A stretch of DNA of 64,000 bases from an uncultured Chloroflexia bacterium (GTDB taxonomy: Bacteria > Chloroflexota > Dehalococcoidia > DSTF01 > JACRBR01): the NCBI GenBank assembly GCA_963736015.1, contig CAVTNG010000004.1:39920-103919 (forward strand), read 5' to 3'. Below, piece after piece: positions 45,634 through 48,311 of the stretch. The number at the start of each line of letters is the position of its first letter. Positions within the stretch are counted from its first letter, which is position 1. The translations under genes and the position numbers were made by a program. Under the pieces are notes generated by a model. That model was not told where the DNA came from and made no database searches. It saw only the letters and a list, made by a program, of their open reading frames with translations.

Positions 45634-46626
45634 TCAGCCGACGCCGAGCAGCTCGACGTCGAACACCAGCTCCGCGTTCGGCGGGATCGCTCCGCCGGCG
45701 CCCCGTGCGCCGTAGCCCAGCTCCGGCGGGATCATGAGCTGGCGCTTTCCGCCCACCTTCATCGAGGCGACGCCCTCGTCCCAGCCCTTGATCACCTGTC
45801 CAACACCAATCACGAACTCGAACGGCTGGCCCCGGTCGACGGAGCTGTCGAACTTTTTTCCGTTCGTCAGGCGGCCCGTGTAGTGCACGGTCACTTTCTT
45901 TCCTGTGGTGGTGCGGCGCCGCGCCGATGGCCTCATCGACATACTTCAGTCCGCTCGGATGTCGTGGTTGCGTCGGGCATCGTGATTCCTTTCAGGCGTA
46001 TTGGTGGTGGTCGTGTCGGGTTCTTGACGTCGAGCAACTCGACGTCGAACACCAGCGTTGAGCCAGCCGGAATGCTGCGATTGCGCGACGGTGCCGTACC
46101 CCAAGGACGCAGGGATGATCAGGCGACGCTTGCCGCCCGTCTTCATGGTCCGAAGGCCTTCCTGCCAGCCCTTGATTACCTGGTTCAGCGGAAACGTCGC
46201 AGGCTGGCCGCGATCGACGGAGCTGTCGAACTTCGTGCCGTCTACGAGCCAGCCCGTGTAGTTCACGGTCACGTTCGACGTCAGGTCAGGCGAGGGACCG
46301 TCCCCTACCTTCTCGTCGATGTAGCGTAGCCCTGTCTCGGTCGTCTGGATCTGAGCCGCGTCGAGCGGCGGCGCGCCGGGCACGTTGCCGTCCGTCTGCT
46401 GCTGCGCGGCCGGATTGTCCGCCGGACGTGATGCCGGCACCGTAGCGGCCCCGGCGCCAGACGTCGCGGCGCCCGAGCCCGATGTCGCCGTCGTGGGCCG
46501 CACGCCGCCCGTCGTCTGCGTCGCCCCGCCACCCGATGCCGCGCTCTTCGCGGTGTTATCGTTGCTGTCGCTCCCGCACGCCGCGAGCAGCACCGCCGCG
46601 ACGAGCATGAGCCCCAGTACCCTCAT
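45634..46626 (-). CDS. Two-domain FKBP-type peptidyl-prolyl isomerase lipoprotein, frameshifted
   Basis: LAAC lipobox; two copies of YTG.L..G.KFDSS.DRGQP, VIKGW, LGYG. Confidence 0.85.
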
Positions 46627-46700
46627 CCAAACCTCCTTGATGCCACCCTGACCGGCGACTACCGGCGCCACCAGGCTCATCCCCGCAGGTGCGCCGCCCT

Positions 46701-47000
46701 TCAACCAGACTCTGGAGCGCCGCGATTCGCCCAGCGTTCGGCAAGCTGCATCCCGTAGTAGAACGGGATGGCCAGCAGGATGATCGGGATGCCGATGATG
46801 ACGCCCTTCATCCCCGCCAGCATGATGAACAGCCCGAACGAGATGCACAGCCCCATCCCCAGCACCGCGACAATGCGGATGATCGCGATCGACGATGAGA
46901 CCTGCGGAAGCGGCTCTGGCGGCTGCTCCGAGGGATACGTGACCTCGTCATCGTCATCATCGACGACGATGGGCGCCGGGGCATCGCGCTCGATATCCAC
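46701..47000 (-). CDS. Small two-TM hypothetical protein
   Basis: Acidic N-terminus, two hydrophobic helices; TACGCT 7 nt before the GTG. Confidence 0.65.
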
Positions 47001-47054
47001 GCCCGACAGCGTAGCAATCGCGCGAGTCGCCGAGAATCGATGTTGATTGGAATT

Positions 47055-47398
47055 GCCCCTGCCCGTCCACGGCCTCGTCTTACGGGTCCCTCGGCGCCGA
47101 AATCACACTAACCTTCCGCCTTGGCGCTCTTCGGGCGCTTAAGCATGAAGTAGCCGCTTTCCGGCCTCATCAGGGGGAGTAAGCCGGTCAATTCCCAGCC
47201 TTCCTCGCCAAGCTTGTCGAGGTAGCCGCGGACGAACCCGGTGCGGTGTTCACCGCCCTGTCGGATGTACTCCGCCCCTTCAGACGAGATCCTGCCTCGA
47301 AAATCAACGTACACGACCTTGTATTCCCAACCGTTCATCGGTGCTCCAGTCCAGCGGCGCTGAACGGGAACCGAAGCCGGGCCGTGCCGGGCAGGGGC
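47055..47398. repeat. About 45-bp imperfect inverted repeat flanking the DUF4177 gene
   Basis: Left arm 47055-47099 aligns with the reverse complement of 47355-47398. Confidence 0.75.
47108..47338 (-). CDS. DUF4177-like small protein (76 aa)
   Basis: WEYKVV...LDKLGEEGWEL...FMLKRP; GGAG SD. Confidence 0.8.
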   Translation of the reverse strand: MNGWEYKVVYVDFRGRISSEGAEYIRQGGEHRTGFVRGYLDKLGEEGWELTGLLPLMRPESGYFMLKRPKSAKAEG

Positions 47399-47461
47399 GC
47401 CTTCAGTCTGGCACAACGGCGCAATGTATAGCCCGAGGCGCACACTGCTGCTTTCGCAGCC

Positions 47462-48228
47462 TCAGGCGACGCCGACGCCCCCGTCGATGACGACGGTTTG
47501 GCCCGTCACCATGTCCGCGCCCTCGATGAGGCTCAGCACGAGCTGCGAGACCGTCTCCGGCGTGCACACCGCCTTCAGCGGCGCACGATGGCTCTCAGCC
47601 TTCCTCGCCATCTCGTACACCTCCTCCCCCAGCCCGTTGCGCAGCCAGCGCGTCTCGATGAACCCCGGCGCGACGCAGTTCACGCGGATGTCCGGCCCGA
47701 GCACGCGAGCGAGCGCGACCGTCATGTTGATCACGGCTGCCTTCGAGGCGGCGTATGCAATCGAGCTGCCTACGGCACGCACGCCCGCGACCGACGCCAC
47801 GTTTACGATCGTCCCGCCTCCCGCCTTGCGCATCGCCTTCGAGGCGGCGCGGGAGCAGAAGAAGACACCCTTCACGTTCACGGCGAAGATGTCGTCGAAG
47901 TACTCCTCCTTCATGCCTTCGAGGTCGGCGAACGCGACGAAGTGAGTCGTCGCCGCATTGTTGACGAGGATGTGCACGCCGCCGAACGCGGCCTCCGCCT
48001 CGTCGCACCATCTGCCGCACGTTGTCCTCGTTCGAAGACGTCCGCCCGCACCAGCAGCGCGCGCGCACCGGCCGCCTCGACCAGAGCGACCGCTTCACGG
48101 GCGTCGTCCTCCGACCGCGAGTAGTTGACGACGACGTTTGCGCCGCGCCGCGCCAGGTCTAGCGCCACCGCCCGCCCGACACCGACAGCTGACCCGGTCA
48201 CGATCGCGGTCTTGCCCTTGACTTCCAT
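47462..48228 (-). CDS. SDR oxidoreductase, frameshifted
   Basis: VTGSAVGVG, NNAA, YAASK, VAPG. Confidence 0.88.
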
Positions 48229-48311
48229 GGTCCCCGCCTCCTGTTTGCGCCGTATCTTGGCAACGATCGAGTTACCGGGCCAGCGAGAGACAGGATGATA
48301 CAATCGCGGCG

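Follow-up and report, generated by a model that had tools for sequence, protein, structure and literature searches.

The window analysed here, a stretch of 64,000 nucleotides of DNA from an uncultured Chloroflexia bacterium, carries on its minus strand a small gene for a DUF4177-like protein, which is enclosed by two sequences that are gapped reverse complements of one another. The question raised by this locus is whether the inverted repeat belongs to the DNA, like the ends of a mobile cassette, or to the messenger RNA and, in the latter case, what it might do for the message. The comparative data presented below, which come from uncultured organisms, answer the structural part of this question with high confidence: the repeat is a conserved RNA feature, and neither a chance repeat nor a mobile one.

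The open reading frame (ORF) encodes 76 amino acids and runs on the minus strand from an ATG at 47338 to a TAG stop codon at 47110-47108 (coding sequence including the stop, 47108..47338). The left arm of the repeat (47055..47099) lies directly downstream of the stop, and the right arm (47354..47398) directly upstream of the Shine-Dalgarno sequence; on the minus strand they form the 3' and the 5' arm, respectively, of a long-range helix. Each arm is 45 nucleotides (nt) long, and their global alignment contains 38 matches, 5 mismatches and 6 gap columns, in agreement with the initial annotation of this DNA, which had described complementary flanks of about 45 positions interrupted by bulges. 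The local inverted-repeat score of 42 (z = 11.1) was reached by none of 200 shuffles. An ungapped repeat search detects only the perfect outer 11 nt of the arms, because gaps are disallowed.

Further copies of the arms were not found in the genome of origin (G000; 2.7 Mb in 13 contigs, 51% complete), where blastn-short returned no match longer than 20 nt. The arms are thus unique within this incomplete genome, and are not the multicopy repeat unrelated to the gene that the initial annotation had named as its possible undoing. Neither a transposase nor a target duplication was seen at the cassette, and no direct repeat adjoins the arms. A search of positions 46900-47600 against Rfam (cmscan, E <= 10) gave only a chance miRNA match of 14.8 bits. 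When the genome was scanned for inverted repeats spaced 150-1500 nt apart, the DUF4177 arm pair ranked 9th of the 117 pairs scoring at least 34; those of the eight outranking pairs that can be named comprise an IS1595-like element, oppositely oriented paralogues, a REP-like palindrome and a small ORF with 27-nt arms.

Relatives of the gene in named records all come from metagenome-assembled genomes, labelled Chloroflexota, Chloroflexi, Chloroflexia or Dehalococcoidia, with two entries given as "uncultured bacterium" and one as "Tepidiformaceae". Among species representatives 126 relatives were confirmed, and the best 80 of the 126 were used. The gene is carried by 49 of 61 genomes of the same order, G000 included, and its presence differs between families (f1, 33/35; f2, 7/8; f5, 7/7; f3, 1/8; f4, 0/2); it is mostly single-copy, with 80-93% amino-acid identity within the family. 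From 125 gene-bearing loci we obtained 79 unique complete cassettes, after the removal of 6 with short flanks, 1 containing N, 37 from duplicate contigs, a truncated gene (L049) and a 37%-identical paralogue (L050). One locus, L024, from a genome flagged as unpublished (G021), accounts for one of 28 rows of alignment A1, one of 23 rows of A2 and one of the 79 cassettes, and no claim made here depends on it alone. At the truncated locus (L049, in G001) the DUF4177 ORF stops after about 47 residues, while the ends of both the 5' and the 3' arm are still recognisable; this is probably a decaying copy.

The SDR gene and the membrane-protein gene that flank the cassette in the window are its neighbours at 23 loci only, 22 of them in the window order and one (L027) inverted, and clades with other neighbours still keep the arms around the DUF4177 gene. 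As a control, 29 distant DUF4177 genes drawn from 200 sampled Chloroflexota genomes were analysed in the same manner, and none had flanks that beat all 200 shuffles (best z = 2.1). Since the arms follow the gene across neighbourhoods and are absent at the 29 distant DUF4177 genes, the helix belongs to this gene subfamily, and not to the locus or to a genome-wide habit. A candidate empty site was seen in G006 (81% complete), which has no DUF4177 gene and carries a convergent GGDEF gene 45 nt from the SDR orthologue; it was rejected, as the context is rearranged and no arm-precise junction exists. In G031 a close SDR orthologue is absent.

Flank complementarity exceeds all 200 shuffles at 25 of 29 testable f1 loci and at 12 of 17 further loci, and 64 of the 79 unique cassettes exceed all of 100 shuffles. 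When the arms of the 79 cassettes are scored all against all, cognate pairs have a median of 29 and non-cognate pairs one of 17, and in 36 cassettes the top-scoring partner is the cognate 3' arm, which ranks third or higher in 57. The outermost 12 nt of the 5' arm exist in 67 versions, and 93% of their positions are paired with their own partner versus 47.5% with shuffled partners, a comparison that is biased because the arm ends were set by alignment. RNAalifold, applied to whole cassettes including the ORF, draws the long-range helix in two separate clades. In an alignment of 28 f1 cassettes (A1), the fraction of paired cells is 94.7%, and two-sided changes are seen in 12 of 25 pairs; none of 500 shuffles reaches any of five measures, and registers slid along the helix give 34-46%. 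In an alignment of 24 distant cassettes (A4), this fraction is 93.2% and two-sided changes affect 9 of 16 pairs; four of the measures are reached by none of 500 shuffles and the fifth by 16 of 500, and slid registers give 28-57%; in both clades the shuffle statistics overstate significance because the genomes are related. Genome kinship does not affect the slid controls, nor the fact that arm sequences have turned over completely from clade to clade. Covariation between the flanks of orthologues, proposed at the outset as a check on the helix, is thus found in both clades, and these compensatory changes indicate that pairing between the arms has been kept by selection.

The mismatches between the arms reveal on which nucleic acid this selection acts. 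Across the 79 cassettes the aligned arms contain 2219 Watson-Crick positions, 117 transversions and, on the mRNA strand, 120 G.U versus 35 A.C positions, an A.C on the mRNA strand being a G.U on the opposite one. Counted per locus, G.U exceeds A.C in 49 cases and A.C exceeds G.U in 11, with 19 ties. DNA pairing, or a pair of protein-bound repeats, is symmetric with respect to the strands and predicts a ratio of about 1:1; the excess of G.U is therefore a signal at the level of RNA.

This asymmetry bears directly on the view that the repeat is a DNA feature, i.e. the terminal inverted repeats of a mobile cassette, a site of inversion or recombination, or a cruciform. A gene between inverted repeats is the classic look of such elements, the neighbours of the cassette differ between clades, and in L027 (from G014) the whole unit, comprising upstream motif, promoter, arms and ORF, is flipped relative to both the SDR and the membrane-protein neighbour. 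However, since this inversion carries along the promoter and the upstream motif, it did not take place between the arms. Moreover, the cassette is mostly present in single copy per genome and its arms have no other copy in G000 (51% complete), no transposase, recombinase or target duplication accompanies it, the promoter abuts the arm, and an excess of G.U over A.C is not expected of paired DNA or of repeats bound by protein. An explanation at the level of DNA is accordingly extremely unlikely, and the initial judgement that the flanks form a selected RNA helix that links the untranslated regions (UTRs) at the 5' and the 3' end, and are not transposon ends, is borne out by covariation, single copy number and the lack of a transposase.

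The energies of pairing speak against another reading, namely that two independent local structures, a protective hairpin at the 5' end and a terminator hairpin at the 3' end, only look mutually complementary. The arms, whose median lengths are 38 and 35 nt, gain a median of -32.8 kcal/mol when cofolded as compared with separate folds (44 kcal/mol better in the window), and the gain is below -15 in 79 of 79 cognate versus 25 of 79 random non-cognate pairs. In favour of independent hairpins, T-runs follow the 3' arm in some relatives, and an arm folded by itself reaches -8 to -18 kcal/mol; yet the arms are not internal palindromes, their cognate pairing is a median of 33 kcal/mol better than the separate folds, the covariation runs between the arms, and cognate partners outscore non-cognate ones. 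We therefore consider this reading very improbable. Duplex energies of the 100-140-nt flanks (RNA.duplexfold) were dropped as a test, since most of the energy came from fortuitous GC pairs (cognate median -97.6, shuffles -76.4, non-cognate -82.8), with the sense strand beating the antisense in 53 of 79 cassettes only; stringent gapped alignment and cofolding of trimmed arms replaced them.

The conserved helix is composed of two parts. Its distal part, reaching the predicted +1, covaries freely. By contrast, all clades examined keep the sequence of the loop-proximal core, in which 5' CCG-GU-UC-RYCGCC pairs with GGCGRY-(U)-GA-CGG and two bases, GU, always bulge out of the 5' strand, and the motif CCGGUUCRYCGC is common to all these clades though their distal arms share no sequence. 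In the window the 5' half of the core is CCC-GU-UCAGCGCC, with the GU bulge (47356..47368, minus strand; invariant or nearly invariant columns of A1), and the 3' half is GGCGCCGAGGG (47098..47088, minus strand), with one A.C mismatch peculiar to the window genome. In the clades shown, the core ends about 2-10 nt ahead of the Shine-Dalgarno sequence. The GGAG of this block is invariant in A1 (AAGGAG being the majority form) and in the window occupies 47344..47347 on the minus strand, outside the helix, 8 nt past its end and 5 nt before the ATG; in both alignments the Shine-Dalgarno sequence and the AUG lie outside the conserved helix. A local hairpin over the ATG is specific to the window and absent from the RNAalifold consensus structure. 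Since the core is fixed in sequence while the rest of the helix covaries, and since it ends so close to the Shine-Dalgarno sequence, it is most likely a site recognised by a protein. A genome search for a regulon sharing the core motif was abandoned, as the motif is too short and GC-rich and gave hundreds of uninformative matches. In a distant clade (L099-L130; A4 columns ~405-430) a further block, UAGUCGAAGUGA or AGCUAGUUUGAC, is kept in the 3' UTR between the stop and the 3' arm.

At the end of the coding sequence, 28 of the 79 cassettes have stops in both other frames no more than 22 nt from the stop codon, versus 3.1 expected. The stop codon itself is TAG in 69 of the 79; the long open frames of the genome end with TGA 1463 times, with TAG 612 times and with TAA 242 times. 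The hexamer GGTTAG (GGUUAG in the message), usually as part of GAAGGUUAG, is present in 72 cassettes and overlaps the stop in 61, including that of the window, where it closes the coding sequence (47113..47108, minus strand); other loci listed for it are L042-L048, L101, L105, L107, L110, L114 and L127. In 11 cassettes it sits 5-20 nt downstream of a different, real stop, and it is therefore conserved as RNA.

Constraint extends into the reading frame. Fourfold-degenerate sites of the ORF have an identity to the window of 0.748 (663 sites, 22 f1 genomes), compared with 0.511 (1826 sites) and 0.516 (548 sites) for the neighbouring genes of the same genomes, and this high synonymous conservation is seen despite AGA, AGG and other codons that do not follow the GC3 preference. 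RNAalifold draws some helices inside the coding sequence on A1, nearly all of them from invariant columns; across 51 diverse coding sequences no internal helix survives (8 pairs, -3.2 kcal/mol), and the idea was rejected.

Where, then, would the message begin and end? A block conserved in the f1 alignment, TGnGCCAGACT, contains in the window the -10-like hexamer CAGACT (47410..47405), preceded by TGTGC in the manner of an extended -10 (TGn); this promoter (47405..47415, minus strand) is predicted from conservation alone and lies 6 nt upstream of the first paired base, 47398. The same position is occupied by CATAAT, GATAAT, TACGCT or TATGCT in lower-GC clades. In 63 of the 79 cassettes a hexamer NANNNT ends 4-9 nt before the arm, versus 14.3 expected at random positions, and for a stricter -10 pattern the figures are 55 versus 4.0. 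With a -10-like hexamer just before the arm, transcription probably begins at the helix base, at or within 2 nt of 47398. The TACATT (47423-47428) that the initial annotation had taken for the -10 is not conserved, and the pairing of a leading GUUG with CAAC at 47042-47045, suggested there as an extension of the stem, falls outside the conserved helix and is unpaired in the fold. A generic sigma-70 scan found no promoter in the region.

Further upstream, a palindromic sequence TGCGA-N4-YGCA (47447-47460, minus strand) immediately follows the stop codon of the SDR gene and precedes the predicted DUF4177 start by about 55 nt. It is present at 15 of 30 f1-like loci, at 1 of 49 other loci and in 1.5% of random windows; in L027 it has changed place along with the cassette. 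This motif may be an FNR/CRP-style operator for the DUF4177 promoter.

At the other side of the unit, a 99-residue membrane-like gene (47000..46701, minus strand) is preceded by TACGCT (47013..47008), 7 nt before its GTG start at 47000, and in the f1 relatives of this gene TACCAT or TACGCT followed by ATG or GTG recurs. This suggests that its message is leaderless, a property apparently conserved in f1. Since the downstream gene appears to have its own -10, the 3' end of the DUF4177 transcript is expected between 47055 and about 47014, which places the predicted boundary of the unit before 47000..47013 (minus strand).

Six soil metatranscriptome runs contain about a fifth of the sampled words, and four of the six, from three studies, were examined. 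Near-identical contigs of these RNA libraries cover 47056-47385 only (47056-47309, 47202-47380 and 47250-47385) and none covers 46988-47044 or 47387-47500, which is compatible with the proposed ends and by itself no evidence for them. Two contigs from two studies start at 47056 (X13, 254 nt) and at 47058 (X16, 83 nt), with no loose end, and on the 5' side the limits are 47380, 47385 and about 47389, none lying further. The agreement of this coverage with the predicted transcript ends is a weak hint, as contigs of this kind cannot prove starts, ends, strand or an origin in RNA, and DNA may be present in RNA libraries. With regard to co-transcription of the two arms, presupposed from the beginning, the contigs join the 3' arm to the coding sequence and the coding sequence to most of the 5' arm, but no single contig spans both. 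They are free of gaps over the arms, apart from the outer 13 nt of the right (5') arm (47386-47398), which are uncovered. The bulges of the window in the covered stretches are therefore unlikely to be assembly indels, a point that matters because this assembly contains frameshifted genes.

From the complementarity, conservation, covariation, strand bias and promoter-like position described above we infer a function for the helix. The DUF4177-like gene would constitute a self-contained, single-gene transcription unit, whose mRNA extends from the first base of the 5' arm (~47398) to the last base of the 3' arm (~47055) or just beyond it. The arms would pair into an irregular helix of 35-45 base pairs (bp), closing the whole message into a loop and leaving the Shine-Dalgarno sequence, the start codon and the ORF in its open part. 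With its 5'-terminal nucleotides and its 3' end buried in this helix, the message would be closed to decay that depends on the 5' end, of the RNase J type, and to exonucleases acting from the 3' end, and would thus be long-lived. The stops in three frames just before the 3' arm would halt ribosomes that could otherwise unwind the helix, and the bulged core would most likely be recognised by a protein tuning translation or cleavage, possibly the very protein that the gene encodes. Closure of the message by the helix with protection of its two ends, exclusion of ribosomes by the stop cluster and recognition of the core by a protein make up, taken together, the explanation we favour, with moderate confidence.

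The decay enzymes encoded by these bacteria suit such an arrangement. RNase III (PF14622), RNase J and RNase Y were found in 5 of 5 genomes searched, including G000, and RNase E/G in none of the five. A set of RNases J, Y and III represents a Bacillus-type decay machinery, which gains entry to a message through a free single-stranded 5' end. The same set, however, allows the helix to be mainly a site for RNase III, at which cleavage of both strands trims the ends (maturation) or initiates decay, so that the helix would set the turnover of the message and not protect it. A helix of 35-45 bp exceeds the approximately two helical turns that RNase III needs, genes for this enzyme are present in all five genomes, this one included, and pairing of the 5' and 3' UTRs of icaR is described as making an RNase III substrate (PMC3868564). 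On the other hand, contigs from RNA libraries still join each arm to the coding sequence. The helix is also regularly broken by bulges and mismatches, themselves conserved (e.g. the GU bulge), and irregularities of this kind tend to lower RNase III cleavage. We judge a role mainly in RNase III cleavage to be unlikely, though with an appreciable chance of being right.

Several known systems resemble the closed message that we favour. In the hok/sok system, the 5' end of the mRNA pairs with its 3' end and translation is locked until 3' processing; the mRNA codes for a small hydrophobic toxin, which an antisense RNA keeps under control. The DUF4177 message would share with hok the end-to-end pairing of a small, compact and stable mRNA. 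Its product, however, is a conserved soluble alpha/beta domain of 76 residues, and its start is not sequestered, so that the analogy with hok-type toxins drawn in the initial annotation fails. The RNase III stems of 16S and 23S rRNA and of phage T7 mRNAs are likewise long helices formed from both sides of a functional RNA; they are cut off during maturation, whereas in the RNA-library contigs the DUF4177 arms are still joined to the coding sequence.

The closest parallel is the hbs mRNA of Bacillus subtilis, in which a 14-bp interaction of the 5' and 3' UTRs limits cleavage by RNase Y and thereby access of RNase J1, a result that compensatory mutants bore out (Braun, Durand & Condon 2017, PMC5737220). 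Like the DUF4177 message as we propose it, that of hbs is a small single-gene mRNA in which the 5' UTR pairs with the 3' UTR just before the transcript end and a strong Shine-Dalgarno sequence is left free (PMC5737220), and both hosts possess RNases J and Y. In hbs the pairing is internal to a structured leader and modulates a single RNase Y site, with a proven role in limiting ribonuclease attack (PMC5737220); the DUF4177 helix, recognised from sequence comparison, has 35-45 bp instead of 14, would run from the predicted +1 to the predicted 3' end, burying both, contains a sequence-conserved bulged core, and belongs to an unrelated gene family and phylum. In icaR of Staphylococcus aureus, base pairing of the Shine-Dalgarno region with a short UCCCCUG motif prevents initiation (Ruiz de los Mozos et al. 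2013, PMC3868564). The DUF4177 helix is several times longer, and a translational lock of the icaR type was rejected, because the Shine-Dalgarno sequence and the AUG lie outside the conserved helix. By analogy, the element would be a new form of the known 5'/3'-UTR pairing (hbs, icaR), acting like the long-range interaction of hbs.

If the core is a protein-recognition site, one candidate for a partner is the encoded protein. It scores 23.9-24.0 bits (E 4.5e-5) against Pfam PF13783 (DUF4177), just below the gathering score of 25, and 20 of 23 aligned orthologues match DUF4177 at E <= 0.01 (best E 1.1e-5). By these profile scores it appears to belong to a divergent DUF4177 subfamily at the Pfam threshold. 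An NCBIfam search gave only a sub-threshold match to the "Sp36 family" (25.4 versus a cut-off of 50 bits), and a PDB profile search with the protein returned nothing at E < 0.5. The AlphaFold2 (AF2) model (pLDDT 86.4) is a soluble domain of the order beta-beta-beta-alpha-beta-beta, and no hydrophobic segment was read in the 76-residue sequence. Fold searches with this model (Foldseek, VIA-align) gave weak matches only, to the H1 domain of KCTD and to GFRP, at Z <= 6.5, i.e. in the range of noise. In the papers found on DUF4177, RNA structure is not a topic; a synteny study of Streptomyces reports a DUF4177 gene near CRP/FNR and WhiB regulators.

These data have a bearing on the possibility that the helix mainly serves to build an operator, whose GU-bulged core is bound by a repressor or activator of translation, be it the DUF4177 product or some other protein, the distal helix only holding the two halves together. 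Consistent with it, the core sequence is kept across clades with unrelated distal arms and ends 2-10 nt before the Shine-Dalgarno sequence, the message shows additional constraint at the RNA level (GGUUAG in 72 of 79 cassettes, constrained synonymous sites), and the B. subtilis DUF4177 protein YjzH is listed among RNA-captured proteins (bioRxiv 10.1101/2025.03.21.644579). The predicted fold is nevertheless unlike known RNA-binding domains, its best matches being KCTD H1 and GFRP, and a local hairpin would make a simpler operator. We hold it doubtful that an operator is the main purpose of the helix, although such a role is compatible with a closed message and the two are not exclusive. Similarly speculative, and in our opinion rather improbable, is the more specific idea of an autoregulatory operator, in which the helix and its invariant GU-bulged core would be bound by the DUF4177 product and the 5' end would be one strand of the helix forming its own 3' end (a terminator or stabiliser with the ORF as its loop), an arrangement that would allow long-lived stored mRNA in slow-growing soil Chloroflexota.

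Some observations weigh against a closed and protected message with a protein bound at its core, in addition to the kinship of the genomes and the limits of the RNA-library contigs pointed out above. With respect to the helix itself, 15 of the 79 cassettes do not exceed all of 100 shuffles, the middle of the arms is poorly aligned, and the core of the window contains the A.C mismatch already mentioned. With respect to its formation, a fold of the full transcript keeps only the outer ~20 bp, with a modest z of -2.48, the arms also have separate folds of -8 to -18 kcal/mol, and the 5' arm stays unpaired during the transcription and translation of about 330 nt. As to the 3' end, a scan of 46850-47650 found 0 sites resembling an intrinsic terminator, and the T-runs seen after the 3' arm are confined to some lower-GC relatives and absent in many. 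Finally, a helix of 35-45 bp is a natural substrate for RNase III and could destabilise the message, and no RNA-binding fold is present among the fold-search matches of the DUF4177 model.

Only a handful of bacterial mRNAs with paired 5' and 3' UTRs have been studied experimentally, and as far as we found, none of these studied cases shows end-to-end closure with covariation across a whole order. A published description of the DUF4177 closed-loop element was not found in the literature on DUF4177, on bacterial mRNA panhandles or on structured RNAs of Chloroflexi. If the proposed closure is correct, the element would offer a natural model for the effect of burying both mRNA ends in an organism with RNases J and Y, as well as a natural design for stable closed-loop messages. 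It would also open a first way to the function of a DUF4177 subfamily present almost throughout this soil lineage, and the conserved bulged-helix motif is one for which a binding partner can be sought. Should this partner be the product of the gene, the widespread DUF4177 would represent a new family of structured-RNA-binding proteins.

The surroundings of the cassette show signs of an imperfect assembly. The upstream SDR gene (47462-48303) is split over two frames near 47911-47977, an FKBP-type gene at 45946-46848 loses its expected C-terminus and looks frameshifted, and elsewhere in G000 the gene for RNase J (C10:201396-203026) lies in four frames or pieces. Given these frameshifted genes, in an assembly of 13 contigs with a completeness of 51%, we attribute them to assembly indel errors rather than to real pseudogenes. 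Two genes for FKBP-type peptidyl-prolyl isomerases are arranged in tandem on the minus strand (45634-45942 and 45946-46600).

Other inverted repeats were noted in passing. Within the window, high-scoring pairs occur inside coding regions (45181-45237/45458-45512 and 57573-57621/58611-58657). Outside it, contig C7 of G000 contains the IS1595-like element with 54-nt terminal repeats and the REP-like double palindrome (C7:215731-216817 and C7:93738-93995), and at C7:139219-139588 an ORF of 78 residues is enclosed by a 27-nt, AT-richer inverted repeat made of GTTCAG units; by the arrangement of its sequence, the latter may be another mRNA whose ends pair.

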